From: a virus
Reading direction: 5' to 3' (one strand)
DNA: 23,700 bases
UHGV virus genome: UHGV-0302543
The notes under the pieces: model-generated
The model's input: only the letters and a program-made list of their open reading frames with translations
Databases searched by the model: none
Told to the model about the DNA's origin: nothing
Position numbers and translations under genes: made by a program
Shown: piece by piece, positions 431 through 18,317 of the stretch
How positions within the stretch are numbered: position 1 is the stretch's first letter
Layout of the letters: every line of letters begins with the position of its first letter

Positions 431-789
431 ATGCGATCATGCCCCACACGCATGGCATGACATACCACGGATGTGGCAGCACCGCTTTTATGCAGCCACG
501 CCAGCGCTTCATCAGCATAGGCCTGTGCACGGCTGACCACGGAGGACAGCGTCTTTTCACGGCTTAACAGCCAGAGACGGGAGCCAACGGGGCGCTCCCG
601 GAAACTGTCTCCCCACCATCCCCGCCTGTCACGAGTGCCGTCAGGGATTTCATCAGAATCCAGCGCCCGCCTGTCCGTAAACAGCGAAATCAGAACGGCC
701 GTCAGCAGACTGTCATCCGTCAGCAGGTCGGCACCGTTCAGTTGCAGCGAGCCGCACCCCTGATCCCATACAATTGCAATATCAGCCAT
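431..789 (-). CDS. Mu gp46-like baseplate protein; 3' end unresolved (no in-frame stop before the window start)
   Basis: ATG at 787-789 overlaps the gp45 stop (ATGGCTGA); translation MADIAIVWDQGCGSLQLNGADLLTDDSLLTAVLISLFTDRRALDSDEIPDGTRDRRGWWGDSF... is protein-like for about 120 codons, then degenerates into Cys/Arg-rich antisense-like sequence. Confidence 0.6.
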
Positions 790-1396
790 TCTCCGGTGCT
801 CCTGTCTTACTGCCTTTGCCGTTATCCTGATGCACATGACCGGAATACCGTATCCCTGCAATAACGGCATCCGACATTGTGAACAGTCCCTGAGATTTCC
901 CCGTACCATCAAGCGCGAAATTCCCCTTAACATGCAGGTTTTTATCCACCGTCACATTGCCCGTAAAGGTGGCTTCCGGCGTATCCACCCGCATCCCCTC
1001 GTCGGCGTAAATCTCCAGCATTTTGCATGTCACAATAATGCGACCATCCTTTGTTAACCGTATCCGGTGCCCCTCATGGTGATACACCCCCGTATCTCCG
1101 GCTTTGAGTCCGGTCGGACGGCTGCGCCGGTCTTCCACCACAAGCACCACAGTCTGATCCCGCTGTCCGCCCAGACAGGCAAAAAAGGTTTCTGCACCCG
1201 GCAGGGGAACGCTGATCTGCCCGTACTGCTGGGGGCGCTCCACATCATCAAAGGTTTCGCCGTCCATGCCGGTGAGCTGCACATTCTGCATTTTCAGTTC
1301 GTCATGTGTGCCGGTCAGAACGCCCCGGCCAAACAGCAGGCGAATACCGCGCGTTACCGGGGCAATCAGGCGGCTGAACACTTCATCATTCATCAA
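782..1396 (-). CDS. baseplate spike/assembly protein V (Mu gp45-like, gpV family)
   Basis: 204 aa; position between gp44 and gp46 homologs; gpV-like composition. Confidence 0.75.
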   Translation of the reverse strand: MMNDEVFSRLIAPVTRGIRLLFGRGVLTGTHDELKMQNVQLTGMDGETFDDVERPQQYGQISVPLPGAETFFACLGGQRDQTVVLVVEDRRSRPTGLKAGDTGVYHHEGHRIRLTKDGRIIVTCKMLEIYADEGMRVDTPEATFTGNVTVDKNLHVKGNFALDGTGKSQGLFTMSDAVIAGIRYSGHVHQDNGKGSKTGAPENG

Positions 1397-2510
1397 AGCT
1401 GATCCCCTGTTTTTTCATCTGCTGGCGAATAAAGGCATCAACATCGTCACCGGAACCACCCCGGCCCTTACTGTCCGGCTCTGCCGGAACGATAAAGCCG
1501 TCACGCGGTGCCAGTACCAGCCGGGTGACTTCCCCGTTCTGTTCATCCAGTAAAAACTCCACCTGACAGACCAGCAGTTCAGTCTGTTCTATACCGAAAC
1601 GCTGGGCCGAAACACCGGTCAGCAGATTGACATCCCATAACCGGCCATCATCCCGGAACCAGCCACGCACGGTGGCAGAAAACCGTTCTGAACGGGCAAT
1701 CGCACGGCGCATTTCACGCAGGGCACGCTGCCGTGCACCGGTGGTGTCTGTCTGTTGATCGGCGAGGATGATTTTCGGCCGGTAGCGGCCGATCTGCTCA
1801 TCACTGATGACGCCCACAGGTGCTGCCAGCCGGGCGGCGGACTCGCTGTCTCCCCGTTTGCCACCACCGCGCCCGTGTCCCCGGACACGGTATTCACTGT
1901 ATCGTCCTCGCCAGTCCGTGTTGTAATCGGCATCAAGCAGGTTATCTCCCAGCACCAGTCTGTCCGTCTGCTGGCTTCCTGCCTGGGTGAACACCAGATC
2001 GCCGTCAGCATTACTGGTCACCAGCACCCCGCGATGCCGGGCAGAACGGGTCAGCGCATCCGCCACGGTTTCTGAGTTTTCCAGCGTAAAAGAGCTGAAA
2101 GGGCGTGCAGCCGTGTCGTCGTTAACCTGCCAGCGCACAGCTATCCCGAAGGGCGCACATAAATCTGCGGCAATCTGTGCCAGCGTCCGGTTGCGCCACT
2201 GACTGCCGGGGTGGATGGCGGCACAGTCCACCAGATCGCCGGTTTTATCCCGGCCGCTGATGCTGATCTGATGACGGGTTGCACTGATCCGCTGACTGAC
2301 CTGATCCAGCCAGCCACTGATGACCGTCTGCCCGTTAATTCTGAGCGTCAGGGACTGACCGGTCCGCATGGCTGAGGGGATGCGCTCACCGGGCAGCATC
2401 AGCCCCAGTTCAAACGACCCGGCCAGATGCTCCAGCGAGCGACGGACGCTGACCGTCAGCCAGCCGGAAAAAATACTGCCACCGATATACAGTTCAATCC
2501 TGCTGCTCAC
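1386..2510 (-). CDS. baseplate hub protein (Mu gp44-like, P2 gpD-like)
   Basis: 374 aa, immediately downstream of the gp43 homolog; size and position match Mu gp44. Confidence 0.65.
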   Translation of the reverse strand: MSSRIELYIGGSIFSGWLTVSVRRSLEHLAGSFELGLMLPGERIPSAMRTGQSLTLRINGQTVISGWLDQVSQRISATRHQISISGRDKTGDLVDCAAIHPGSQWRNRTLAQIAADLCAPFGIAVRWQVNDDTAARPFSSFTLENSETVADALTRSARHRGVLVTSNADGDLVFTQAGSQQTDRLVLGDNLLDADYNTDWRGRYSEYRVRGHGRGGGKRGDSESAARLAAPVGVISDEQIGRYRPKIILADQQTDTTGARQRALREMRRAIARSERFSATVRGWFRDDGRLWDVNLLTGVSAQRFGIEQTELLVCQVEFLLDEQNGEVTRLVLAPRDGFIVPAEPDSKGRGGSGDDVDAFIRQQMKKQGISFDE

Positions 2511-3852
2511 TGATCACCTCCACGCTGCGGCCACCCGGAACAAAAACCGGATCGGGGATGTTGTTTCTGCGGACAAAATACTGCCAGCGGCGGCTGTTGC
2601 CGGTGGCACGGTACAGCGTGACCAGTGCCGGTTCGGTGGTTCGCACCATGACCTGAAAAGCACCGGGAAGATGAACACTCCGCGTGGTTAAATCTTCTGT
2701 CAGTGCAAGCCCTGCATCACGTAATGCAAGGGCGGTGCCGGTATGGCCCTGTGCGGACAGATCCAGTACCTGTTGTTCCATGGCATCACTCAAATCCCGG
2801 TTGATACGCTGCACATCGGCAGAACTTTCCAGCCAGGCCAGTCCACCCGCACGGTCAGTATCCTGAACGTGCGTTGTATTCTGCCGGATGACCTGATCCA
2901 GCAGTTTCCCGACCGTCTGCGCCTGCGACACCAGGGTTGCACTCTGCATGACGCTCCGCAGCAGACGGATATTTTTCTGTGCCGCAGGCGTCAGACCAAT
3001 CAGGCGCTGCGGATCATCCTGTTCGCTGAGGGTGTAACGCAGGGAAGAAAGTGTGCGGTACAGCTGCGGCATTGCCTGCTCTGTCATGCTGTCACGGTTT
3101 GTGGTCAGGCTGCCGGACGGCCTTCCTGTCTTCCCGGTCAGTGACAGGGAAGGATTGCCGGGCAGTCCGGTCAGCACAGCAAATATTCCGGCCAGAGATT
3201 CAGCCATGCGACGGGGCGCATTAATCAGGGCGGCGGCATTGCCTTTCAGGGCGGTAAAACTGGCCGTAAAGGCACTGACATCCTGCACAATCCCCATCCC
3301 TGAAACGGCATTCTCCAGCGCATCAATCTTATCGCTGATGGTGTCGGTCATGGCCTGTACATCATGCAGACCGTCTGAAATCACCGTCCAGCCGTCTGAA
3401 AGCGTGTTAAACAGCTGATTCATTGCTGAACCGCTTTTCTGCTCCAGCGCAGCTGCCGTATCTTCTGCCACCGAAGGGGCGGTATCGTCAATGGCGGGGA
3501 TCACGTTGATCGTGAACTCAACCGTTCCCTGCTCGCTGGCGTTATAACGGCTTTCAAAGCTGTTTATCAGCACGTTTAACGTGCCGTAATCCGGGTGCAT
3601 CAGTTCACCGGCACCGGGTGCACGCAGCGCATCACGCAGGCGGCTTCGCTGTGTCTGAAGATCGTCTCCGGTCACCAGAACCGTGAATGTGAACTCCGGG
3701 AGTTTTGGCCCCAGATCATCCGCACCGCCGCTTTCACGCAGTGGGTATTCACGGCGCACAATGTTACGTCCGCCCCGTTCCCGCTGCTCCTGATAAACCA
3801 GGAACGGTACGCCACGAAAGGAGCCACGCCCCGGCGTGTCAGTAGAGGCCAT
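2494..3852 (-). CDS. DNA circularization protein (Mu gp43 / P-like)
   Basis: 452 aa directly downstream of the tape measure gene; size, position and composition consistent with Mu gpP family. Confidence 0.65.
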   Translation of the reverse strand: MASTDTPGRGSFRGVPFLVYQEQRERGGRNIVRREYPLRESGGADDLGPKLPEFTFTVLVTGDDLQTQRSRLRDALRAPGAGELMHPDYGTLNVLINSFESRYNASEQGTVEFTINVIPAIDDTAPSVAEDTAAALEQKSGSAMNQLFNTLSDGWTVISDGLHDVQAMTDTISDKIDALENAVSGMGIVQDVSAFTASFTALKGNAAALINAPRRMAESLAGIFAVLTGLPGNPSLSLTGKTGRPSGSLTTNRDSMTEQAMPQLYRTLSSLRYTLSEQDDPQRLIGLTPAAQKNIRLLRSVMQSATLVSQAQTVGKLLDQVIRQNTTHVQDTDRAGGLAWLESSADVQRINRDLSDAMEQQVLDLSAQGHTGTALALRDAGLALTEDLTTRSVHLPGAFQVMVRTTEPALVTLYRATGNSRRWQYFVRRNNIPDPVFVPGGRSVEVISEQQD

Positions 3853-4642
3853 AGTTCCCTCCGTTCCAGACGTTCACATCCAGGCCATGCTGTGCGGTAT
3901 CATCCACATCAATACTGCGCGCCCGCCAGCCTTCAGGGGCCACAAGCTCTACCCGTGCGGCGGTTTTCGCGGTGGCCTGTCCGCCGTTTTCGTCACTGCT
4001 GCCACGCAGTTTCTGCCAGGCCTGCGTCAGCCAGCCCCCCAGATAATCACCGAGATAGCTGCCCACTGTGGAACCAATGGCAACCCCGACCGGACCGGCA
4101 GCCGCCCCCAGCGCGCCACCGGCGATACTTCCGGCAAGGGAACCCACGGCACCGGCTTTATCGGCTGCACTGGCGCTACTGTCCAGCAGTACAGGAGCCG
4201 CCATGGCACCGGCCCACAGGGCACCCCCACCCAGCCGACCGGCACCACGGAACAGCCCGGCAAAACGCCCCAGCCCCATGCGGTTTCCGGCCGCCGTTAC
4301 CAGACCACCGGCACGGCTCATCATACGACCGAAGAAGCCCTGTTTACCGGCGCTCTCCGCCAGCTGCTCACCGGCGGTCACGACGGTCGTGACACCCCGC
4401 CCGCGTCCGGGGCCGCGTTTTTTACGGCCGCGCACGGTTTTGCCGTCACCGCTGACCACCACATCCCCGCCGCCTGAGGCCAGGCCACCCGCAGGCCAGT
4501 TGGTGACCAGCACGGGCTGAACGGCAGCAGGATTTACCCCGGTAAGGAAATTCAGGAAGCGGCCAGCGCGTCCGGGCTGCGTTCCCGGCACAGTGGTCTG
4601 CGGTTTGCGGAAGGGCGACGTCAGCACGGAGGTCATCGCCAC
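3839..4642 (-). CDS. tail tape measure protein, C-terminal part (Gly-rich), separated from the N-terminal part by an inverted segment
   Basis: 267 aa; GTG start lies inside the left inverted-repeat copy; Gly/Ala-rich segment typical of tape measure C-termini. Confidence 0.7.
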   Translation of the reverse strand: MAMTSVLTSPFRKPQTTVPGTQPGRAGRFLNFLTGVNPAAVQPVLVTNWPAGGLASGGGDVVVSGDGKTVRGRKKRGPGRGRGVTTVVTAGEQLAESAGKQGFFGRMMSRAGGLVTAAGNRMGLGRFAGLFRGAGRLGGGALWAGAMAAPVLLDSSASAADKAGAVGSLAGSIAGGALGAAAGPVGVAIGSTVGSYLGDYLGGWLTQAWQKLRGSSDENGGQATAKTAARVELVAPEGWRARSIDVDDTAQHGLDVNVWNGGNYGLY

Positions 4643-4671
4643 AGTCTGAAAAAGAGCCTGAAAGGCTTCCT
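4625..4671. repeat. left repeat block in tape measure gene: 16-bp unit cacggaggtcatcgcc followed by 31-bp unit acagtctgaaaaagagcctgaaaggcttcct
   Basis: Exact reverse complements of both units occur at 4990..5036. Confidence 0.85.
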
Positions 4672-4989
4672 GGATTATGCTGATGCGGCACAGAAAAGCG
4701 GCTTACAGGATAAGCTGGCCACACAGACGGCCTCGGCCCTGAATCAGGGATTCGAGTATGCCAGAGACGCTGCAACCGGCTTTTACCGTGCCATTCAGAA
4801 AGTCAGGGAAACGCTTCAGGCACTGCGCGACGCCGGTTATGGCGATGCACTGGATCGTATTGGTCAGGGGGCGCAGACCGCCGCAAAATACCTGATGTAT
4901 ATGTATCTCGCCTCCCGCGCGCTGAAGGTGCTCAGGTTTGCGGGGGCGGGAGCATTACGTCTCGGCGCAACCCCCTTACGCTATAGTAT
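4672..4989 (+). other. inverted internal segment of the tape measure gene (coding sense on plus strand)
   Basis: Plus frame reads DYADAAQKSGLQDKLATQTASALNQGFEYARDAATGFYRAIQKVRETLQALRDAGYGDALDRIGQGAQTAAKYLMYMYLASRALKVLRFAGAGALRLGATPLRYS, helical and tape-measure-like, in frame with both flanking minus-strand parts once reverse-complemented. Confidence 0.75.
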
Positions 4990-5943
4990 GGCGATGACCT
5001 CCGTGAGGAAGCCTTTCAGGCTCTTTTTCAGACTGTCAAACGGTCCCTTTGCCATCACTTCACGGGCAAACTGATCCCAGACGTCGCCCATCATGGACGT
5101 CATTCCCGTCCAGGAATTCATGGCGTTTTTCTGGGCACCTTTTGCCTGTTCGGCCATCACCTGAAATAACAGGCGAATGCTGTCCGGCCCCAGTTTTCCT
5201 TTTTCGCCTTTCTCACGGATGAGCTTCTGGTTTACGCCCAGCTTATCGGCCAGTAACTGGTAAACGTTAATCCCGTATCCGGTCAGAATATTGGCGTCCG
5301 CTGCCTGGATACTCTGGCGGGCAAACATCTGTTTGAGTTGCAGGGACGCACCCTGTGCATCTGACAGTGACCAGCCGTGATAGCCGCCCTGATCCTGAAG
5401 CATGGTAATAAAGCGACGGGCTTCCCTGTCACTCATGCCAAACCCGCGACTGGAGGCGTATTCCTGCATAACCCCCGCCAGCCCCCAGGTGGTGTCTTTG
5501 GCGTTCTGTACTGCCCAGGCTTTCACTGCTTCCGTTTTTGCCTTATCGCCATGATTAATGGCGTTGAGACGCAGAATATAGTTCTCCATCTCTGCGGCCG
5601 GGCGGATAAAGGCTTTATTAAAACCGTAGACCGCAGCCCCTCCCGCCAGCATCCCGTAAAGGTTGCTTATCCGCCCGATGGTGCCGGTAATGCTGCCCTG
5701 CAGGCGGTCAAAATCTGACGTTACCGTGCGGATGCTGCCACGAACACCGGCAAGCGTTCGCTGCATACGGGAGCCGACAAGTTCTGTTTCCTGACCGGCC
5801 CGGCGGGCTGCATTTCCAAGACCACCCAGGCCTGTCCTGCCGGAACGGGAGAACGCCCCCAGCTCCTGTGACCACTGGCGGGATTTGGCGGAAATATTGC
5901 CGAGTAAATCGACAATCAGGGAGGCTTTCAGGTTTTTTGCCAT
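4981..5943 (-). CDS. tail tape measure protein, N-terminal part, truncated by TAG at 4981 just inside the inverted segment
   Basis: 320 aa, helical composition, immediately downstream of the chaperone gene. Confidence 0.7.
   Translation of the reverse strand: MAKNLKASLIVDLLGNISAKSRQWSQELGAFSRSGRTGLGGLGNAARRAGQETELVGSRMQRTLAGVRGSIRTVTSDFDRLQGSITGTIGRISNLYGMLAGGAAVYGFNKAFIRPAAEMENYILRLNAINHGDKAKTEAVKAWAVQNAKDTTWGLAGVMQEYASSRGFGMSDREARRFITMLQDQGGYHGWSLSDAQGASLQLKQMFARQSIQAADANILTGYGINVYQLLADKLGVNQKLIREKGEKGKLGPDSIRLLFQVMAEQAKGAQKNAMNSWTGMTSMMGDVWDQFAREVMAKGPFDSLKKSLKGFLTEVIAIL
4990..5036. repeat. right repeat block: ggcgatgacctccgtg followed by aggaagcctttcaggctctttttcagactgt
   Basis: Perfect reverse complements of the two left units, each inverted in place with order preserved. 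Confidence 0.85.
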
Positions 5944-6070
5944 GGGTTACTGCTTCGTTCTGAGAATTTTTTCGGTCTGTCGGCAGTGCCGGTAAAGCTG
6001 CGATAAGGGGAGGTTAAGCGCCCACTCCGGGCCGCTTTTTGTCACCATCCCCAGCACAATTGCGGCTTCT

Positions 6071-6547
6071 TCAATCTGATCCCGGCACTGCATCTGGTCG
6101 CCCCCGTTCAGCGACCAGCTTTCCTGCCATCGCGGAATCAAGCAGGCTTACCGCCGCCATCAGACGGGAGAGATCGCGCTCGCTGAGCTGTCCGATCTGA
6201 CGCGGAGATAATGGCCCCTCAATCTGGCCGACAGCGGCAATCTGACGGCGCAGCAGCGCAATGCCGCGCAGTGCCGGAGAGGCCACCAGAACCGGACCGT
6301 TTCGGGTTTCCATAAGACGCTCGGCCTCACTCTCCGCATCAATGCTGTCTTTCGCCGTCAGTTCGCGGAAGGTGACGCGGTATTCACGGGATTCACCGAA
6401 CGGCAGGCCGTCGAGCAGATCCACATAGCCGTTCACCAGCTGTTCAGCCAGCCCGGCGGTGCGGGGATCGCCGTCTTCAAGTGCATCCCGGATAGCCTCC
6501 ATCACGGCCTCGTCAGAAACCGCCGTTTTTTTCTTACGTGTGCTCAT
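6071..6547 (-). CDS. tail assembly chaperone (Mu gp41-like); overlapping ORF 5947..6141 may be a frameshift extension
   Basis: 158 aa between tube and tape measure genes; the overlapping ORF is in the +1 frame and ends 4 nt before the tape measure start; a G5 run (plus-strand C5 at about 6101-6105) lies in the overlap. Confidence 0.55.
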   Translation of the reverse strand: MSTRKKKTAVSDEAVMEAIRDALEDGDPRTAGLAEQLVNGYVDLLDGLPFGESREYRVTFRELTAKDSIDAESEAERLMETRNGPVLVASPALRGIALLRRQIAAVGQIEGPLSPRQIGQLSERDLSRLMAAVSLLDSAMAGKLVAERGRPDAVPGSD

Positions 6548-6561
6548 TACATTTTTCCTGA

Positions 6562-6927
6562 TTACTGGACACGGGTACTGGTGGCGCTGGCGAACTTCGC
6601 GGAGATATCACCGCCACCGTCAAGCGAGGCCGGTTCACTGCTCCAGGCCTTCGTCATCATGTGGACTTCACCGGTATCGGCCACAAACTCAATCGTGACC
6701 GCAGTCCAGGTGTTGATTTCATCGGCAGCCGGTGAACCTTCTCCGCCAGCCGGAAATTTACAGTCCAGCGTCGCCTCACGGGGTTTCTCGCGATAGCCAT
6801 AGACTTTCGCGCCTTTCACCACTTCACGCTCATAGCCGGACGGGGAGAACGTGGCCCCCTCAAGGGTGTCGTACTCCTGTCCGTTCACACGGATGGTGGC
6901 CGTGCCCTGATACTGTTTTCCGCTCAT
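6562..6927 (-). CDS. tail tube protein (Mu gp40 / M-like)
   Basis: 121 aa directly downstream of the sheath gene. Confidence 0.75.
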   Translation of the reverse strand: MSGKQYQGTATIRVNGQEYDTLEGATFSPSGYEREVVKGAKVYGYREKPREATLDCKFPAGGEGSPAADEINTWTAVTIEFVADTGEVHMMTKAWSSEPASLDGGGDISAKFASATSTRVQ

Positions 6928-6935
6928 GCCTTACC

Positions 6936-8438
6936 TCACAAAATGAAACGGATCTGTGCTGCCAGGAAGCGGAACTGGTTAACCAGATCCGGCGTGCATA
7001 ACACGTCAAGGCGGTTTCGATCTGACGTATTACGCTCCACAAGCAGATTCTTTTTAAACGTGTCCAGATTTTCGACCAGCCCGAGTTCCACCCACTCTTC
7101 ACCCAGCGAAATTAACTGAAGCTTCATGATCTCCGGCGTCACGATATTCTGACCGGCACGAACGGGCGTCCCGTCATCAGCCAGTTTATGGCGCGGAAAA
7201 CGTTGAGTGATGAAAGTGCGCAGGGAATAACGCAGATATGACAGGGTGTAGATGGTTTCCACATCCAGATAGCTGGGATCACTTTCGCCGTACACGTTCT
7301 GGCGATACATCGTCACCTGACGCTCAATCTGAACCATATCCCCGGCCGCCACACTGACCGTGGCAATCCCTCCCCACAGCAGACTGTTACGCTCTTCACG
7401 CGTCAGACGATCGGCCGGGGCCGGGGCCATGCGTGACGGAAGCGCCAGCGTCTGAAGCGGACGCGCAGGATCTGCTCCCAGAGAGGGTGCACAGGTGGCA
7501 CAGACCGCCGCTGCCCAGAGGTAATCCGGTTCAGGGGCTTTGGGAATGGATGTGCAGGTCGCCAGAAAATCATTGCGTTTTGCCCCGAATGCCTGCACCT
7601 CACCAAACGTGCCGGTATGTGCCAGCCACAGCACGCCGTCAGACATTTTGGCCGGTCCCCAGCGTTTCAGAAGTTCATCACTGATGATTTTCAGGTTTGC
7701 ATCGTCCTTGTAGGGCATGACAACATAGTTGTACTGGCGATCCCCCATTCCGGCCACACTTCGGGTGATATCGGGATTGCGGGCTCTTGAGGAGGGAAAG
7801 CCTGTCTGGGGCGTCAGCCCTGACGGCAGGGTTTCACCGTCGTGATAATTCAGGCGCAGATCGTGCACAGAGCATTCACCAATGAAGCGGGCGCTCACTC
7901 CCATACTTCCTTTCAGACCGCCTGCATTACTGCCATCAACAACCGCAGATACAGCTGTGAATGGCGCATCAGTATCCTTATTTATCAGGGCAACAAGCGC
8001 ATCAATGATAGCTTTTCCTTTTTGTCCGGCTTTTACGGGCAGCGCATAGCGTCGTCCACCAATATAGATGCAGAGCAAACCATCGGTCGCAGCCGTACCG
8101 GTAAGGTTAAAGGCGGCGGCATTTGCCCCGCCTGTTCCGGCCCCCTGCGCAATAGCATACAGTTCCGCATCAGGATTGATGGCAATAAATTCAGCCACCA
8201 TCAGAGCGATCATGGAGCCACGCCCCCAGAGCTCCACAGCCTGAGAGGCGCGAGTGATCCTGACCGGAACATCCAGCACACCGGTACCGTCCACAGCATT
8301 CTCTTTCATTCTCGCCTGACCAAACAGCAGCACACACTGACGCTGTGCCGGGGTGCCGGTGACCGCCATGGAGTTATTAAACTCAACCCCAATCAGCGGT
8401 ATACGGCGGTCATTACCGATCCCGTCAAAATTAATCAT
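6936..8438 (-). CDS. contractile tail sheath protein (Mu gp39 / L-like)
   Basis: 500 aa, sheath-like size and composition, upstream of the tube gene. Confidence 0.85.
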   Translation of the reverse strand: MINFDGIGNDRRIPLIGVEFNNSMAVTGTPAQRQCVLLFGQARMKENAVDGTGVLDVPVRITRASQAVELWGRGSMIALMVAEFIAINPDAELYAIAQGAGTGGANAAAFNLTGTAATDGLLCIYIGGRRYALPVKAGQKGKAIIDALVALINKDTDAPFTAVSAVVDGSNAGGLKGSMGVSARFIGECSVHDLRLNYHDGETLPSGLTPQTGFPSSRARNPDITRSVAGMGDRQYNYVVMPYKDDANLKIISDELLKRWGPAKMSDGVLWLAHTGTFGEVQAFGAKRNDFLATCTSIPKAPEPDYLWAAAVCATCAPSLGADPARPLQTLALPSRMAPAPADRLTREERNSLLWGGIATVSVAAGDMVQIERQVTMYRQNVYGESDPSYLDVETIYTLSYLRYSLRTFITQRFPRHKLADDGTPVRAGQNIVTPEIMKLQLISLGEEWVELGLVENLDTFKKNLLVERNTSDRNRLDVLCTPDLVNQFRFLAAQIRFIL

Positions 8439-8680
8439 TGCGGTTTCTCCTTATCGGATGCCGGTTGGGCGACCGGTTTTTCTGTCGCAGTCGTTGCATC
8501 CGCAGATACAGCCGGAGCCTCTTCAGCGGCTTTTTCAGCCTGAATGACATCGCCGTCATCAAGACGCCGACACCAGAACGGCGTGAAGGTTTTTTCCTCC
8601 CCCTCCTGTGCCAGCGGGCGCATTGTGTCGGGATCACGAATCAGGCGTCCCGGCGCGGGTTTGATAAAGATGGTTTTCAT
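8435..8680 (-). CDS. Mu gp38-like small protein (DUF2635-like)
   Basis: 81 aa starting MKTIFIKPAPGRLIRDPDT; GGAGGA RBS upstream; start overlaps the sheath start region. Confidence 0.55.
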   Translation of the reverse strand: MKTIFIKPAPGRLIRDPDTMRPLAQEGEEKTFTPFWCRRLDDGDVIQAEKAAEEAPAVSADATTATEKPVAQPASDKEKPQ

Positions 8681-8701
8681 TTACAGTTCCTCCGGCGGTT
8701 C

Positions 8702-8726
8702 GACCGCCGTTGTCGTGTTCCCCGGC
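8702..8726. repeat. left copy of a perfect 25-bp inverted repeat (gaccgccgttgtcgtgttccccggc)
   Basis: Exact reverse complement at about 9058..9082; coordinates +/-1. Confidence 0.85.
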
Positions 8727-9088
8727 TGGTCAGTCACTGGGTGTTCTACGTCATCGGCGACATGCTCAACGGGCGTGAGGCCAGCCGTCCCGGACTGTAT
8801 CAGATTGTGGCCCGGCTGATTGCCGTGCTTAACGGCTTCAGAACAGAAAAAACCTCACCGCTTTACTTTGAAAAGGCGGTCAACGGTTACACCGAAACCC
8901 AGGCGAACAGTGGGGCCGTGATGTATGCGCTTTATTTCTCCTGCGAGGAAATGATCGCGCCACTGACGGATATCAGCTCGCTGGACGACTTCCTGCGTCA
9001 TTACGAAACCTTTGTGGAGCCGCCCGGTACGCCGCCGTTTGAGGCACATATTGATTTGCCGGGGAACACGACAACGGCGGTCCGTTAA
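8727..9088 (+). pseudogene. body of the gp37-like head gene in inverted orientation (sense on plus strand)
   Basis: Plus frame reads VSHWVFYVIGDMLNGREASRPGLYQIVARLIAVLNGFRTEKTSPLYFEKAVNGYTETQANSGAVMYALYFSCEEMIAPLTDISSLDDFLRHYETFVEPPGTPPFEAHIDLPGNTTTAVR*; every flanking gene is minus-strand. Confidence 0.75.
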
Positions 9089-9209
9089 TCAGCATGGTGC
9101 GCAGTACGCTGTCGCTCCAGTCGCCGGGATGCGTGTCAACAGACACAAGTTCATTCCCGAAATACTCACGGATACGGGCGATGTATGCCTGTTCGGTTTC
9201 CGTAATCAT
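8973..9209 (-). pseudogene. gp37-like N-terminal fragment (first 42 codons plausible, then reads into the repeat and antisense of the inverted body)
   Basis: ATG overlaps the gp36 stop (ATATGA); MITETEQAYIARIREYFGNELVSVDTHPGDWSDSVLRTMLIN followed by low-complexity sequence and stop. Confidence 0.65.
9058..9082. repeat. right copy of the 25-bp inverted repeat (gccggggaacacgacaacggcggtc)
   Basis: Perfect reverse complement of 8702..8726. Confidence 0.85.
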
Positions 9210-9625
9210 ATGAAGCCCTTCTGGTTGCGCCCGAATACCGCCGCATCAGACTGAACCTGTGGTAAATCCCCGGATTCAGGGGCCGCACCGTTCGTATCCA
9301 CACCTACCGGCACATTGCCGTTCATGACATCTTTCAGCCAGGCCAGCGCTTCACGGTAACGGTCACGCGCCTGATCGGAGGCTCGCTGATCGCACAGGTA
9401 ATAAAAGGCAATCGCGCAACAGTGCTGAACAAGAACAGCCGGGATAACCTCCAGCGGCAGCGTGTAACGGGCGGACAGATAGCTGTCGATAAGGGCTGAC
9501 GCATCTGTCAGCGCCCGGTTCAGCTTGCGCGTGTCCAGCTCATCCGAACGGGGCACTGCCAGTAACGGCCTGAGCAAATCCTCGCGGTAACGCGCCCGCA
9601 TATCGCTTTCAGTGGCGTAATTCAT
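9206..9625 (-). CDS. Mu gp36-like protein (DUF1320-like)
   Basis: 139 aa starting MNYATESDMRARYREDLLRPLL; position between gp35-like and gp37-like genes. Confidence 0.6.
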   Translation of the reverse strand: MNYATESDMRARYREDLLRPLLAVPRSDELDTRKLNRALTDASALIDSYLSARYTLPLEVIPAVLVQHCCAIAFYYLCDQRASDQARDRYREALAWLKDVMNGNVPVGVDTNGAAPESGDLPQVQSDAAVFGRNQKGFI

Positions 9626-9993
9626 GCGCGGGCCTTTTTCGCCTGTTTCGCTTTGTTACCGGTCTTTTTCCGGGGAGCATCCTGTCCGGCTTCGGCTTCG
9701 GCTTCGGCTTCGGCTAAATCTGTACCGGCCACTGCATGAACCACACCCGCCACGCTCCCCGCATCATCAGCAGGCGTCTGTAGTATTCGCACAGTGAGGC
9801 ATGGCTCCGCCTCCAGTCGGGCAAGCTGCTCCGGGGTGACCTCAACCTGCTGACGTCCACGCGTGAACAGGAACCCCGCACGACGAAACGCCGAACGACT
9901 GCAACGCACTTCTGCCAGCACCGTGACAGAATTGTCACCACTGACCTGAAGACCTGAATCATCTGTTGCTGCCACAGTGTGATGTTCATTCAT
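9622..9993 (-). CDS. hypothetical head-region protein (Mu gp35 position) with AEAEAEAE repeat and Lys/Arg-rich C-terminal tail
   Basis: 123 aa; GGAGGG RBS upstream of the ATG; contains the hexanucleotide tandem repeat. Confidence 0.45.
   Translation of the reverse strand: MNEHHTVAATDDSGLQVSGDNSVTVLAEVRCSRSAFRRAGFLFTRGRQQVEVTPEQLARLEAEPCLTVRILQTPADDAGSVAGVVHAVAGTDLAEAEAEAEAGQDAPRKKTGNKAKQAKKARA
9688..9715. repeat. tandem hexanucleotide repeat (ggcttc), about 4.5 copies, inside the gp35-like CDS
   Basis: Read directly: ggcttcggcttcggcttcggcttcggct; encodes (AE)n on the minus strand. Confidence 0.85.
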
Positions 9994-12758: not shown

Positions 12759-12880
12759 ATTGCCTCCGTGAAACTACCTGGTTAAAATAAAAGCAGGTCG
12801 GTGTACTCTTAACTGGTAAAGCGGCGCCTGATGGTTTTTTCCTGAGGGATGTTTATGCGGGTTCGACCCCCGCCACCGAC
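12759..12880 (-). other. structured intergenic region between F and G (nested stem-loops followed by a T-run on the minus strand)
   Basis: 9-bp long-range complement aggtcggtg / caccgacct encloses the hairpin gcggg-ttcgacc-cccgc; minus strand continues CTGCTTTTATTTT. Confidence 0.3.
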
Positions 12881-14206
12881 CTACAATTCACCCTCCAGTA
12901 ATTCCAGCTTTCCACCGCGCAGATCATCAAGTAATGCCTCCTTTTTGACTCTGTAGGCATTAATCACCACATCCAGCTTATCCGGCTGACGTTTCACACT
13001 ATAAGGCGCATTGACGGCAATCTTTGCCGTTCCGTCACGGGTTTCAGTGATGTAAAGCAGATTCTGATGGACATGATCCCACAGCACGGCATCAGGCGCG
13101 GCCAGCATTGCCGGTAATCGCCCGAAATCCTCCGGCGTCAGGGCAATGCCGTCATTCTGATGTTTCACGCTGTCCGCATGGAGCACATTTTTACCGCTCA
13201 TCGCCAGCAGGCGGGCCGGTGGCGTTCCCGTCCGGCTTTCCACCGCCTGCGCAATACTTTCGGTCATAAAGCCCAGCGTGCGGATATCGTGACCACCTCG
13301 CCGGGTCTTCATGATGTTTTTTGCCCAGATGCGGAACGCCAGCTGCCGCTCCGGGCTGTTGTTCATCTCCTGAACCACCATTTCCCGTAACGCCGGGCTT
13401 TTCACCTCGATCAGTTTACGGATCAGCGCCTGGTCTGTGCCGAACGCCGCCGAACCGGGGTTATATGACCAGCCCACATCCGGTGTCATGGTTCTGGTGC
13501 CATCTGAATATGTGGTCACCGGCATTTCTCTGACTTCTCCGGTCTGCTTATCCACGCCAGCCTCAACATTGCGGGTGGAGAGATGATCCTGACCGGATGA
13601 AACGGATAACCCCATTGCATCCAGACGGGCCTGAGATAATGGCCGGACACGGCAGCGGCAGTTCCAGCCATTGGGCGGGTAGTGTGTATTCCAGAACGGA
13701 TCGTCATAGCGGAATACCAGCCCGTTAAAGGCGGAATGTGCCGGGCGGGTGCGGCTGTCCATCACCGCCACATACTGCCAGAACGGATGCGTGTCCGTGT
13801 TGTTCATCATCTGCGTGTAACGCCCGGCATTGTAAGCCACACGGGTGTTCACGTTGTAAATCAGCGCCAGACGGCGGGGACTGCCCAGCTGCACTTCTTC
13901 CGCGTTACCGGCACTGTCCACCACAATCTGTTTTCCCCACCATCCCAGCTTTTGCAGGCGGGGTGTCAGCGTGCGAATAAATGCTTTCTGTGAAATCCCC
14001 TCATCAACAGCACGCTGCACTTCCGCCTGTAGTGTGGTCAGTACGTCCAGGCGTGCCACTTTTGCCGCCGTGAATGAACGGGCATGAACATCCGCGTCTG
14101 TTTCGAACCAGTTCCAGCTGATATGCGCCCCTTTGGCGCGGAAGTATGCCACCGCCTCTTTTGAGGGAAGCGTGGCGGCATAACCCAGATCAATCCCCTG
14201 TGCCAT
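12881..14206 (-). CDS. head morphogenesis protein (Mu gp30 / F-like)
   Basis: 441 aa containing the F-family GWNCRCRV motif; directly downstream of the portal gene. Confidence 0.8.
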   Translation of the reverse strand: MAQGIDLGYAATLPSKEAVAYFRAKGAHISWNWFETDADVHARSFTAAKVARLDVLTTLQAEVQRAVDEGISQKAFIRTLTPRLQKLGWWGKQIVVDSAGNAEEVQLGSPRRLALIYNVNTRVAYNAGRYTQMMNNTDTHPFWQYVAVMDSRTRPAHSAFNGLVFRYDDPFWNTHYPPNGWNCRCRVRPLSQARLDAMGLSVSSGQDHLSTRNVEAGVDKQTGEVREMPVTTYSDGTRTMTPDVGWSYNPGSAAFGTDQALIRKLIEVKSPALREMVVQEMNNSPERQLAFRIWAKNIMKTRRGGHDIRTLGFMTESIAQAVESRTGTPPARLLAMSGKNVLHADSVKHQNDGIALTPEDFGRLPAMLAAPDAVLWDHVHQNLLYITETRDGTAKIAVNAPYSVKRQPDKLDVVINAYRVKKEALLDDLRGGKLELLEGEL

Positions 14207-15788
14207 CCAGCATCCCCTTCATTTCCGCAGCAAACATGGCATCACTGAGCAGCGTCATCAGGCGGGAATCATCCATTTCACGGTAAAGGGCGGGCAGGTC
14301 TGCCAGCGCATCCGCCAGCCCCCGCGTTCTGATGGCATCAATGACCGGCTCCAGTAGCGGGTCGATGGCCTCCTGTAACCGGCGGGCAGGCACCGCATCC
14401 CCCATGTCGTCCAGTTCATCACGGGGGCTGCTTTTCGCTTCCGGCACTCGGGCTGACAGCGCCGTCTGCTCTGTCTTTTCCTGTGTTTCCGGTGGTATTT
14501 CCCTGTCAGTCTGAGCCGGTTCATTGCCACTCTGACGGACACGGAAGATGGCTTCGCCGGGCGTGGGCTGCGGAATACCCGTCTGCTCACGTATCCAGGG
14601 ATCAGAAATATCCATCCCCGTACTGAGCTGCATCACCGCACTGGTGATTTTGGTGATATCCCCCGGTTCTTTTGTCTGGAAGCAGATACGTGGCAGACGG
14701 CGGATATCAATAGTGTGCGTGGTGTTCAGGGCGTACAGCGGATACACCAGATCGCGGTTCAGCGTGGCAGCCAGCTGACGTAAATCAGAATCCCTGATTT
14801 CCCGGCGCACCTCGTTATGCACTTCACCCAGCGAGCGCGCGCCTTTGTCTCCGGCTTCCGTGGTCAGCGTGCCGCCGAGGATAGCTTTGGAGATGGAACG
14901 CTCCCCCCACGAAATCATGGTTTCAAACGGATCGGCCTGACCGTTCGCTGCCGCCTGAAACTCCAGCGACATCCCGGCCGGGATGATCCCGCCTGTACGT
15001 CGCCCGATATCCATCACCGCCCGCATCAGGGCGCTTTTCTGCTCCGGTGTTGCCCCGGACGGGTATTTACCGACCTTCATCGGCAGGCCGTACACTTCCA
15101 GAAATTCAGCCAGATCGCGCACGGAATAGTTTTTGAAAATGAACGGCCAGATAAGCGTTCTGACAAGCCCCGTTGCGCCGCCGTAACCGGTGCGTGAACG
15201 TGACTGATGCACTATCCAGCCAAAGGGCTGAAACGCCACCCCGGCATGGCTGCCGTCACGCAGCCGCAGTTCGCTCAAATCATCCGGGTTAAGGCAGAAA
15301 TGCCCGCTGTCACGCCAGCGGATGGCGCGGATGATGTGCATTTTACCGAGCATCCCGTGCTCAATCTCCATACAGGAATAGCCCTTCAGGATGGCATCGG
15401 TAGCATCAAACAGCATGGCATCAAACCAGTCGGCGGAATGCAGATATTCGTCGAGCATTTCCGCGTCCTTTTTCTCATTCGCGCTGGCGTTCGGTGGCGG
15501 CTCAATGCTCCATGGCACGCCCTGAATGGCAAGACGTCGCTTGCCCAGCTCTGCAAAAAGGTGGGTGTCCTTTTCTTCAATGTCAGCCGCCAGATCGGAC
15601 TGGGCAATCAGATCGCCATGTTCAGCCCCGCGAAGGCACTGCGCCGCCCGGTTCGGGGTGATACCCGAGGCCGGATGTTCAATATAACGGCTGGCAATCT
15701 GCGGAATATCCAGCACGGCACTCTGCATCTCCGGGTCAAAGGAGAAAGGTTTTCCGTCAAGATCAATTATGCGTCCCACTACCAGCAC
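14190..15788 (-). CDS. portal protein (Mu gp29-like, DUF935 family)
   Basis: 532 aa immediately downstream of the large terminase with overlapping start. Confidence 0.8.
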   Translation of the reverse strand: MLVVGRIIDLDGKPFSFDPEMQSAVLDIPQIASRYIEHPASGITPNRAAQCLRGAEHGDLIAQSDLAADIEEKDTHLFAELGKRRLAIQGVPWSIEPPPNASANEKKDAEMLDEYLHSADWFDAMLFDATDAILKGYSCMEIEHGMLGKMHIIRAIRWRDSGHFCLNPDDLSELRLRDGSHAGVAFQPFGWIVHQSRSRTGYGGATGLVRTLIWPFIFKNYSVRDLAEFLEVYGLPMKVGKYPSGATPEQKSALMRAVMDIGRRTGGIIPAGMSLEFQAAANGQADPFETMISWGERSISKAILGGTLTTEAGDKGARSLGEVHNEVRREIRDSDLRQLAATLNRDLVYPLYALNTTHTIDIRRLPRICFQTKEPGDITKITSAVMQLSTGMDISDPWIREQTGIPQPTPGEAIFRVRQSGNEPAQTDREIPPETQEKTEQTALSARVPEAKSSPRDELDDMGDAVPARRLQEAIDPLLEPVIDAIRTRGLADALADLPALYREMDDSRLMTLLSDAMFAAEMKGMLDGTGD

Positions 15789-17443
15789 CCCCGATCAAAT
15801 TTATGATATGCCTCATCGTCATCACGATAACCGCCCTCCATGGCCCGCGACCGCTCCGGCAGCGCCTGACAGGCTGATTCATCCAGGATGAAACCCTCCA
15901 TGTATGACGCCCGGTTTGCCATACAGAGTGCCACGGCAAAATCACCATGGCGGCGGGCGTTCGCAGCCGTTGCGTTCTGGTCCTTCGTGCGCCCCTTGTC
16001 GATTTGCGGGATACCATTCACCACCTTCACATGGCGCAAATCATCAAGCGTGGTCTGATGGCGGGCGACGAGGATATTCTGATCTTCAAACTCGGCTTTC
16101 AGTTTTGGCATCCACTCGCCGTACCACTTCGGCGACAACATCACGCAGTCGATGATGTCCGGGCCAAAGGCCAGCAGCGCGGCTTCTGCCAGATAGCCGC
16201 CGTTACCGGTGGCGTCAAACGCTGCACCAACCAGGGCCGGAACGCGGGTCAGGATGTACATCATCACCTGCTCCTGCTGGGCATACGGCAAGTTGCGCAG
16301 CTCCACGCGAAACACCTCACGTTTTGCCAGGGATTCGGTGATTTCCAGCAGCACAAAGCAGGAGAGGTCACCGGTGCGGGCAAAGTCTTCCCCGAAGCTG
16401 AAGCGGGAACGGGGATTTAACGCCTCTAAAAGCGGTTTTAAATGTTCTTCACACCAGGTTAAAACTTCCGATTCACGCAGCCATGCGGCACGGCTGATGA
16501 AGTCGTCCGGGGCTTCAAACGTCAGAATCGGGATGTCGCGGATCATCGCCATTTCAATAAGTGCGTGAGGAATATAGGCACCGCCGGATTTTTTCGGGAT
16601 ACAGCCGTATTCCTCGTCGGCATCCTCACGGGTCGGGGCGTTTTTGTAGAGATCATCACGCCACTTCTGCTCGCTTTCCGGTGACCATTCGCGGCCGGTG
16701 ACATAACAGATACGACGGTACAGCCCGTCCGCAATGGCATCATCCAGGGTTATGCGGTGGACGCTGTAATCCTTGCGTCCCTCGCGGGCTTCCTGAATGT
16801 ACTGATTAAACAGATTATCGACGCCGTTATGCGTGGAGATAATACGCACGCGCGCGCCCCACATGGTAAGCGCCATTGCCGCCTTGAGAAGCTCATCCAG
16901 TGACTCGTGGAACGCGGCTTCATCAATCACCACATCTCCCTGAAGGCCGCGCAGGTTTGACGGACGGGAAGACAGTGCCTGAATTTTGAATCCACTGTTC
17001 GGAAAGCGGATCATGTAGGTCAGAATTTCTTCTTTTTTATCCCGATCCCAGAAGGTCTGCTCATACACATCAGCATCTGCCAGCTGGTTAAAGGCACGGG
17101 AGAACAGGGCGCAGGCAGAAATATATTCCAGCGCCATCTCCTGCTTTGACCCCACATAAAACACATTGCGGCCACCGCGCCGCTTCGGTTTTGCAGCGGT
17201 AATGACGTTACGCCCGGCTTCCGCCCAGGTAAGCCCGGTACGGCGGGATTTTTCCGCGATGCAGACCTCGCTTTCATCCTCAAACCAGCGGGCCTGATAA
17301 TCCAGAAATACCGGCATATCACCGGGCAAATCAAGGCTGTCCGGCACATCCACGCCCAGCAGGGCTTTTTCACCGGCCAGATCAATTTTGCGGGTGGAGA
17401 CGGTATTCGTCAGTAAGGGGGAGAGTTCTTCGGCGTTATTCAT
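15779..17443 (-). CDS. terminase large subunit (Mu gp28-like)
   Basis: 554 aa; Walker-B-like VVIDEAAF and nuclease-like C-terminal region. Confidence 0.85.
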   Translation of the reverse strand: MNNAEELSPLLTNTVSTRKIDLAGEKALLGVDVPDSLDLPGDMPVFLDYQARWFEDESEVCIAEKSRRTGLTWAEAGRNVITAAKPKRRGGRNVFYVGSKQEMALEYISACALFSRAFNQLADADVYEQTFWDRDKKEEILTYMIRFPNSGFKIQALSSRPSNLRGLQGDVVIDEAAFHESLDELLKAAMALTMWGARVRIISTHNGVDNLFNQYIQEAREGRKDYSVHRITLDDAIADGLYRRICYVTGREWSPESEQKWRDDLYKNAPTREDADEEYGCIPKKSGGAYIPHALIEMAMIRDIPILTFEAPDDFISRAAWLRESEVLTWCEEHLKPLLEALNPRSRFSFGEDFARTGDLSCFVLLEITESLAKREVFRVELRNLPYAQQEQVMMYILTRVPALVGAAFDATGNGGYLAEAALLAFGPDIIDCVMLSPKWYGEWMPKLKAEFEDQNILVARHQTTLDDLRHVKVVNGIPQIDKGRTKDQNATAANARRHGDFAVALCMANRASYMEGFILDESACQALPERSRAMEGGYRDDDEAYHKFDRGCW

Positions 17444-18024
17444 CAGACTTTACCCAACAGAATCCCCTTAATACGGGACTCAAGCTGTTCACTCATCCCG
17501 TCCACGCCGCGCAGCTCGTCGGTGACCGCGTTTGCCATCTCTTCAGCAAATGCGGCCCGGATTTCTTTTTCACGCTTAATGCTGCGCTCGGCGGCACTTT
17601 CCGCACGCTGTGCTGACAGGAGGATGTCTTTGATGAGGCGCATATCCACGTCGCTGTCGCTGTTCAGAGATTCGGTCGCGGCACGCAGGCGGCGGTACAT
17701 CAGGGCGCGGGACATTTCCAGAATCAGTGCAGTGGTTTCACCGGTTGGCTTGTCCCCCAGTTCGGCCATCATGGCTTTTGTCTGCTCGCGTAAATCACGC
17801 AGGTTACGGGCAATCAGCTCATTACGGGAGGCTTCCCGGCTGATGGCCGCCGGTGAAAGCTGCTGCTCTTCCGGCAGGCCCACCTCACGGATCAGACGGT
17901 TGATTTCCTCGCGGATCTGGACCTGCGTCAGACGTTTTTCACGCAGCATTTCCAGCAGCGGCTTACGGATGCTGTCGGGGAGCAAATCCACCTTGCGTAC
18001 ACGACCACGCGTCGGCTTGTCCAT
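17443..18024 (-). CDS. Mu gp27-like protein (DUF3486-like; putative terminase small subunit)
   Basis: 193 aa starting MDKPTRGRVRKVDLLPDSIRKPLLEML; AAGGGGG RBS; immediately upstream of the large terminase. Confidence 0.6.
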   Translation of the reverse strand: MDKPTRGRVRKVDLLPDSIRKPLLEMLREKRLTQVQIREEINRLIREVGLPEEQQLSPAAISREASRNELIARNLRDLREQTKAMMAELGDKPTGETTALILEMSRALMYRRLRAATESLNSDSDVDMRLIKDILLSAQRAESAAERSIKREKEIRAAFAEEMANAVTDELRGVDGMSEQLESRIKGILLGKV

Positions 18025-18026
18025 CG

Positions 18027-18317
18027 TTACCCCCTTGCGCGTGGTTTCTTCACACCCGGAACGCAGGCCCGGCCTTCCGCCACATCCTGCCCACGACCGG
18101 TCAGTTCCGCGATGAAATAACCGTTAATCAGAACGCGTTTGCGCACCAGTCCCTGCTCGGCAAGCCAGGCAATGTGGGTGTGAACGGTGTCGCGGGACAC
18201 GCGGTGGCCGTAATCATCCAGACAGTCCTGGAGCACGGATTCACCCAGTTCACCGTTGTAATCTGCCAGCGACCGCAGAATGACCAGACGCTGATCTTCA
18301 GTAATGAAATCACTCAT
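18027..18317 (-). CDS. hypothetical small protein, winged-helix-like (Mu gp26 position)
   Basis: 96 aa, ATG start, position only. Confidence 0.4.
   Translation of the reverse strand: MSDFITEDQRLVILRSLADYNGELGESVLQDCLDDYGHRVSRDTVHTHIAWLAEQGLVRKRVLINGYFIAELTGRGQDVAEGRACVPGVKKPRARG

Follow-up and report, generated by a model that had tools for sequence, protein, structure and literature searches.

Template switching at quasi-palindromes is reportedly a classic phenomenon in bacteria, described by Ripley and Lovett. In the four-point switch-and-return model (Loytynoja and Goldman 2017, PMC5453318), the product follows the ancestor up to point 1, continues as the reverse complement of the stretch from point 2 to point 3, and resumes at point 4; an inverted repeat arises where the stretch from 2 to 3 overlaps a flank. 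Work on E. coli has described paired inverted template switches, within-fork inversions, and cells with several unrelated rearrangements; a second inverted switch is needed there to regain a viable molecule, and the homology usually reported is 3–30 nt at paired inverted switches and 1–4 nt at simple deletions (PMC3161906).

The locus described here lies in a 23.7-kb stretch of DNA (the window) that belongs to a Mu-like Escherichia coli prophage and covers its late (head, tail, and baseplate) region and some of its early region. It contains three small inverted blocks (events 1 to 3), the third of which splits the gene gp37. In the form of the product these events match the four-point model: there is an overlap repeat, an inverted spacer, and a loss or duplication of flanking sequence that follows from the order of the points, and one switch point of event 3 lies in a natural quasi-palindrome. 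However, 284–365 nt were copied back here, whereas the model was built for short-range events seen as local mutation clusters; moreover, no pre-existing near-perfect long inverted repeat guided the switch, and three events are clustered in 9 kb. FoSTeS-MMBIR and the paired inverted switches of E. coli (Lin et al. 2011, PMC3161906; Hastings et al. 2009, PMC2621351) likewise produce two novel inverted junctions per event and possibly several rearrangements per genome, and the human dupINVdup, delINVdel, and dupINVdel variants (Collins et al. 2017, PMC5338099) represent the same classes of inversions flanked by duplications or deletions. On the other hand, those events extend over kilobases to tens of kilobases and usually have 3–30 nt of homology, as opposed to 0.3 kb and 0–1 nt here, and they were selected via gene amplification, whereas the present events brought no selection, only loss of function.

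Invertons (the Gin/G segment of Mu, Hin of Salmonella, the fim switch, and those of gut Bacteroides) have a similar appearance, namely an inverted repeat around a segment that is opposite in orientation to relatives, and the phage family in question does have a Gin-type system. A genuine inverton of the Mu G-segment type is found in relatives (positions 15656–17713 of locus L005), beyond the left end of the window and the baseplate genes: inverted arms of 179 nt (96% complementary) surround 1077 nt beside a 186-aa PF00239 invertase. It carries alternative tail-fibre and assembly genes, and the Caudo_TAP assembly gene is on opposite strands in different relatives. The arms of the gp37 repeat consist of gp37 coding sequence that is present in duplicate and are not the arms of this inverton. 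Unlike invertons, the gp37 locus has an unconserved repeat, has no functional alternative state, adjacent invertase, or promoter, and has lost sequence at one junction. Finally, inverted joins arise in vitro. MDA chimeras, first described in E. coli (Lasken and Stockwell 2007, PMC1855051), resemble the present events in that they are intramolecular inverted joins between nearby positions with intervening deletions; they differ in that they were described as one rearrangement junction and not as a switch out and back after ~0.3 kb. An MDA chimera is a rare molecule and would be expected not to win the consensus.

The split gp37 gene and its collinear ancestor

All genes of the window are on the minus strand, and their order agrees with that in annotated relatives: baseplate J, gp46, gp45, baseplate P, DNA circularization protein, tape measure, tail tube, sheath, DUF2635 (gp38), DUF1834 (gp37), gp36, HI1506-related protein, major head, protease, and onward. 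Between 8.4 and 9.7 kb, the order is sheath, gp38, gp37, gp36, gp35. The first-pass annotation referred to gp37 as a head gene, which is a loose label: the gene belongs to the Phage_Mu_Gp37 family and lies between gp36, a head-tail adaptor, and the gene for the tail sheath. The features of the region are listed by window position, with points numbered as in the four-point model:

8435–8680, minus strand: gp38 (DUF2635, 81 aa), the intact downstream neighbour
8681–8726, minus strand: orphan native 3′ end of gp37 (...PGNTTTAVEPPEEL), with the stop TAA at 8681–8683, abutting the gp38 start at 8680
8690–8697: one half, CTCCGGCG, of an ancestral 8-nt inverted repeat, still present; the other half, CGCCGGAG, was in the deleted segment, directly before return point 4
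8693–8709: natural quasi-palindrome CGGCGGT-TCG-ACCGCCG, which relatives share; its loop contains switch point 3 (8702)
8702–8726: left repeat arm r, the native copy; its minus strand encodes gp37 residues 173–180 (PGNTTTAV), continuous with the native gp37 3′ end
8726/8727: junction J1 (point 1 to point 2), ancestral 327 joined to the complement of 659/658, with one ambiguous shared base (C)
8727–9057, plus strand: inverted block with gp37 codons from about 62/63 to 172, readable on the plus strand only
8973–9209, minus strand: truncated product now encoded, 78 aa, made up of 42 gp37 residues and 36 out-of-context residues
9058–9082: right repeat arm r′, an extra inverted copy of r from the rearrangement; relatives have one copy only
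9082/9083: junction J2 (point 3 to point 4), blunt, the site of a 56–57-nt deletion (ancestral GGCGACCACGGGTACGGCCTTCACCGGCACCCAGCCAGGCAACGTAGATCGCCGGAG)
9083–9209, minus strand: native 5′ part of gp37, with 42 codons from the ATG at 9207–9209, covering positions 1–43 only of the Pfam PF08873 profile
9206–9625, minus strand: gp36 (head-tail adaptor family, 139 aa), the intact upstream neighbour

The inverted repeat is exactly as the first-pass annotation had claimed: GACCGCCGTTGTCGTGTTCCCCGGC at 8702–8726 recurs as its perfect reverse complement at 9058–9082, with 25 nt in each arm and 331 nt between the arms. A perfect inverted repeat of this length is far beyond chance in the window; apart from it, the only perfect inverted repeats of at least 16 nt in the whole 23.7 kb are a 31-nt and a 17-nt pair at 4625–5036. 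The annotation was also right that gp37 is split between strands. The 42 codons that begin with the minus-strand ATG are identical to residues 1–42 of an intact 186-aa relative, and the plus strand of 8727–9057 encodes residues from 62/63 to 172. Two further details of that description proved accurate: the gene ends on a TAA directly before gp38, and the quasi-palindrome at the junction is a natural one.

A megablast search with positions 8400–9700 against 5,426 complete E. coli genomes found this region in 230 records, and the present arrangement of gp37 is covered by none of them: each record yields two collinear flanks and a separate match on the opposite strand. A collinear PF08873 gene of 186/187 aa is also present in all 27 further loci that we retrieved from draft genomes and metagenomes. 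In strain CP55_Sichuan, the gene encodes an intact 186-aa "DUF1834 family protein" that matches PF08873. Throughout these relatives (~260: the 230 complete-genome records and the 27 fetched loci), the 25-mer is single copy and the gene is collinear. Thus, the repeat in the window is a by-product of the rearrangement.

Base-level comparison with a relative (ref) accounts for the whole region in three pieces: window 8400–8726, which includes the left arm, equals ref 1–327 (100% identity); window 8726–9082, which includes the inverted block, equals the reverse complement of ref 303–659 (100% identity); and window 9083–9700 corresponds to ref 716–1333 (98.7% identity). In other words, the window reads A-r-B′-r′-C with D deleted, and there are no extra bases at either junction. 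At the left junction, 25 nt (ref 303–327) are now present twice, in inverted orientation, and at the right junction 56–57 nt (ref 659/660–715, 19 codons) are missing, so that the residues APAIYVAWLGAGEGRTRGRL of the relative are replaced by a single V. In total length, 8400–9700 measures 1301 bp in the window against 1333 bp in the relative, a difference of 32 bp. The first-pass annotation had viewed the locus as the ancestral block inverted in place with one terminus duplicated; the inversion and the 25-nt duplication are correct, but this deletion was missed. The same deletion affects the reconstruction of about 170 aa that was offered there. It does give an open minus-strand frame, of 167 aa, which is open because the missing piece is a multiple of three under that bookkeeping; however, this is not the ancestral protein. 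The alignment to homologs that had been proposed as a check shows one collinear 186-aa gene in relatives, as was anticipated, yet this gene differs from the reconstruction by the 19 codons.

The present orientation encodes a product of 78 aa, and flipping the segment between the arms would yield 67 aa, as against 186 aa for intact gp37. Neither orientation encodes gp37, and re-inversion cannot restore the gene because 56–57 nt are missing. A simple inversion between the 25-nt arms was also considered as the ancestral arrangement and was rejected: it leads to the 67-aa frame, which does not match the relatives. The intact protein of the relative matches the Pfam model PF08873 (Phage_Mu_Gp37/DUF1834) with 60.9 bits over profile positions 1–136, whereas the 78-aa product covers positions 1–43 only and the plus-strand fragment alone has no match to this profile. 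Therefore, gp37 of the window is a disrupted pseudogene of the Phage_Mu_Gp37 (PF08873/DUF1834) family. As for the name of this family, PHROGs places the 186-aa gp37 of a relative (positions 3282–3842 of locus L001) in phrog_490, which is labelled 'portal protein'. This label is implausible for a protein of 186 aa when a separate 529-aa Portal_Mu gene exists, and the family is probably mislabelled.

Three rearrangements of one form

Whole-window alignment to the closest complete relative, JNEC-KY203 (NZ_AP045179.1; 99%), revealed three blocks on the opposite strand, each of which was resolved against near-identical collinear relatives:

149–432, event 1: 284-nt inverted block; 99 nt lost on the left and 98 nt lost on the right, so that baseplate J lacks its 5′ end and gp46 its 3′ end
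4641/2–5005 (span 4625–5036), event 2: 365-nt inverted block inside the tape-measure gene, with both ends duplicated
4625–4641 and 4989–5005, left duplication of event 2: 17-nt perfect inverted repeat
4641–4671 and 5006–5036, right duplication of event 2: 31-nt perfect inverted repeat
8726–9082, event 3 (gp37): 357-nt inverted block; 25-nt inverted duplication on the left and 56–57 nt lost on the right

The three events fall within 9 kb, about 4.1–4.5 kb apart. Event 1 has no repeats at all, and its gp46 fusion frame is still open where the window ends on the left; the tape-measure gene hit by event 2 is intact in relatives and encodes 685 aa. As read from the sequence, events 1 and 2 destroy baseplate J/gp46 and the tape measure, and the prophage is predicted to be unable to build tails or complete virions. 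The gp37 arrangement stands in the sequence as the annotation described it, but it is not alone: it is one of three equivalent rearrangements, and the other two had been missed. The question thereby shifts from a switch in gp37 to the origin of three scars.

Relatives of the window are collinear at all levels of similarity. The ten loci that share its exact 452-aa circularization protein are 99.7–100% identical to it in every segment without gaps; they are collinear and carry intact genes, and in each case the alignment with the window breaks at the same three places. The same collinearity is seen in a further 17 loci, some of which are just 86–98% identical, and in all contigs that carry the rarer intact proteins of the window (95–99.4% identical). 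Outside the three events, the window is 99.8–100% identical to relatives and free of indels. Compared with relatives, it has 0 gaps over 433–4641 and 5006–8726, and over the latter stretch 0 mismatches and 0 gaps relative to one locus (L012). Private point differences amount to roughly one in the same 11 kb that contains the three inversions.

All three events can be written in the same way: the ancestor from the left to point 1, the reverse complement of the stretch from point 2 to point 3, and the ancestor from point 4 to the right, with nothing else changed. The orders of the points are 1-3-2-4 in event 1, 3-1-4-2 in event 2, and 3-1-2-4 in event 3. All three are among the types observed in real genomes (PMC5453318), in which point 4 does not come before point 1. 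In event 3, the 25-nt repeat is present because the stretch from 2 to 3 overlaps the sequence to the left of point 1. The polarity is also identical in all three events. The numbers of bases shared at the six junctions are 1, 0, 1, 0, 1, and 0: each left junction shares one base (C, A, and C), and the right junctions are blunt. Random junctions would share ~0.67 bases on average, so the observed homology is no more than chance, and the microhomology of a few bases above chance that serves as the criterion for FoSTeS/MMBIR was not seen at these six junctions.

There are some hints that DNA structure played a part. Points 3 and 4 of events 1 and 3 are no more than 9 nt away from an ancestral 8-nt inverted repeat, a proximity that random point pairs reach in 4–5% of cases for each event (4% for event 3); nothing comparable was found for the other four point pairs. 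Together with the location of a switch point in the quasi-palindrome loop, these displaced 8-nt repeats weakly suggest, in a post-hoc comparison, a structure-dependent process. Inversion mediated by the ancestral repeat itself (CTCCGGCG/CGCCGGAG in event 3) was considered and rejected: the observed joints fall short of the predicted ones by 12 nt in event 3 and by 15 nt in event 1. At most, the 8-nt inverted repeat was a stalling or proximity cue.

Origin of the rearrangements

We interpret the split gp37 as a mutational scar and not a device, one of several switch-and-return template-switch scars that inactivated the prophage, and estimate the probability of this reading at about 0.45. While this stretch of the Mu-like prophage was being copied, the growing strand would have reached ancestral point 1 (window 8726), switched to the complementary strand ~330 nt further on (point 2), and copied backward for 357 nt, ending 25 nt behind the departure site, in the loop of the quasi-palindrome (point 3). 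It would then have returned to the original template 56–57 nt beyond point 2 (point 4). Overlap of the first and second copied pieces would leave the perfect 25-nt inverted repeat, and the skipped piece would be the deletion. Sequence comparison establishes the structure of the locus, its ancestral arrangement, the loss of function, and the fact that re-inversion cannot undo it; a polymerase switching templates in the cell is the producer that we infer. In favour of scars, three events share one grammar in 9 kb, and all of their orders have been seen in real genomes. Base-level quality is high, and there is no haplotype switch at the junctions; therefore, explanations by noisy assembly are weak. 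Three specific forms of such explanations were rejected. A chimera in which the junctions link two prophage haplotypes conflicts with the nearest variable site being 222 nt from J2 and with several relatives being identical on both sides; noisy long-read assembly conflicts with the lack of indels and the near lack of private differences; and fold-back reads conflict with the junctions, which are not palindromic.

On the other hand, junction homology is below that usual for template switching in E. coli (PMC3161906), and three complex inversions alongside about one private point difference in 11 kb are unlike gradual decay. To account for such a ratio of inversions to substitutions, an artefact or a single aberrant episode of replication would be required. 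The allele is also a singleton with zero divergence. The junction 30-mer is absent from the one-genome-per-species, viral, and metagenome collections, exact-product look-ups found neither the 78-aa product nor other plausible products among 15 billion proteins, and in every collection searched the allele is therefore a singleton. Neither the repeat arms nor the inverted blocks have diverged at all from relatives, and hence there is no sign of the allele ever having been inherited.

These last observations also speak for the main rival reading, an artefact of the record, which we regard as quite possible, although short of an even chance: the DNA of the organism would be collinear, and the flipped 0.3-kb blocks would come from in vitro amplification, from assembly or finishing, or from later editing of the sequence. 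Along the in vitro route, chimeras of strand-displacement amplification would be fixed by amplification from very little template, and MDA chimeras are indeed mostly inverted joins with intervening deletions inside one molecule (PMC1855051). However, more than 70% of MDA junctions are primed at 2–21 nt of complementarity (PMC1855051), compared with 0–1 nt here, and cultured E. coli is rarely amplified. Along the assembly or finishing route, small contigs or reads would be misoriented and joined with small overlaps or gaps, and 17–31-nt overlaps or 56–99-nt gaps around a flipped piece have the look of misoriented small contigs. An artefact in general is also suggested by the similar, fragment-like block lengths (284, 365, and 357 nt) and their spacing of ~4.1–4.5 kb in an otherwise near-perfect sequence; junction homology at chance level points the same way, as do the singleton allele and the zero divergence. 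Yet de Bruijn assemblers cannot invent junction k-mers, and overlaps of 17, 25, and 31 nt correspond to no fixed k−1. Nor do the collinear stretches (433–4641 and 5006–8726, 0 gaps) contain same-orientation joins with small duplications or gaps. Fold-back reads would give palindromic junctions, which these are not, and breakpoints lie near ancestral hairpin or inverted-repeat features in two of the three events, which an in-silico process would not produce. From sequence alone, scar and artefact are inseparable.

Breakage and rejoining in the cell would be another route to the same arrangement: two double-strand breaks ~0.3–0.45 kb apart, with the fragment re-ligated in reverse via RecBCD/LigA alternative end-joining, resection giving the deletions, and fill-in of long staggered ends giving the duplications. 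Blunt or 1-nt junctions suit end-joining better than they suit microhomology priming, and deletions adjoin junctions in events 1 and 3, but this route requires six breaks in 9 kb and, for three of the six junctions, fill-in of staggered ends of 17–31 nt, both ends of event 2 being duplicated. In addition, E. coli lacks Ku/LigD end-joining, and its alternative end-joining pathway is very inefficient. The E. coli study of template switching argues that end-joining is a poor explanation for multi-junction events (PMC3161906), and we consider this origin improbable. The functional intragenic inverton, the on/off switch suggested by the first-pass annotation, is more improbable still, to the point that we give it almost no credence. 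On this reading, recombination at the 25-nt repeats would flip the segment and so turn gp37, or expression of the downstream tail genes, on and off. A length of about 25 nt is close to the minimum for RecA-dependent exchange, so rare flipping is conceivable, and the perfect inverted repeat around a gene segment and the Gin-type invertase encoded by relatives agree with this idea. However, neither orientation gives gp37, as 56–57 nt are gone; the repeat is not conserved, being single copy in every relative, none of which is inverted; and the flipped form with both repeats is in no record. No promoter-like site was found in or near the block (promoter scan of 8400–9400), none of the window's genes was recognised as an invertase, the real invertible segment of the phage is outside the window, and sister event 1 has no repeats. 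Of the three readings that the annotation had offered, then, the inverton is set aside, while the inactivating template-switch scar and the assembly chimera are both retained.

If the scars are real, they might all stem from a single episode in which error-prone replication of the prophage region left 0.3-kb switch-and-return inversions ~4 kb apart. We regard this more specific proposal as rather unlikely; candidate episodes would be replication induced by a break or belonging to a restart, or Mu-type replicative transposition after which helper siblings packaged the defective genome. Were it true, the locus would be a small-scale bacterial counterpart of chromoanasynthesis, in which four-point template switches span hundreds of bases with almost no junction homology. 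Real scars would in any case offer a fully resolved natural example of a 0.3-kb switch-and-return with the ancestor known to the base, and three events in one prophage would represent three of the four observed point orders, which would be useful for studies of replication-based rearrangement and prophage decay. An artefact would mean only a quality flag on the source record. Thus, either the locus adds one more case to a class of rearrangement already known or the feature is not real, and in neither case is it a new regulatory switch. The locus further cautions that a flipped segment flanked by perfect inverted repeats is insufficient for calling an inverton.

Other features of the window

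RefSeq annotates a 'tRNA-OTHER' in JNEC-KY203 (positions 13979–14063 of locus L002, corresponding to window ~12760–12880) between the virion-morphogenesis gene and the MuF gene; ARAGORN found no tRNA anywhere in the window. Upstream of gp36, the HI1506-related gene contains a perfect tandem repeat, CGGCTT × 4.8, at 9687–9715, which encodes an Ala-Glu run. The product of this gene ranges from ~102 to 149 aa among relatives, which suggests variation in repeat number. Differences from the closest relatives are clustered at 17668–18096, in the gp27 gene and an adjoining small ORF. The exact gp27 variant of the window occurs in 16 contigs only, all of which belong to a more distant (~95.5% identical) Mu-like lineage, and the cluster looks like a recombination patch of the kind expected from ordinary phage mosaicism.
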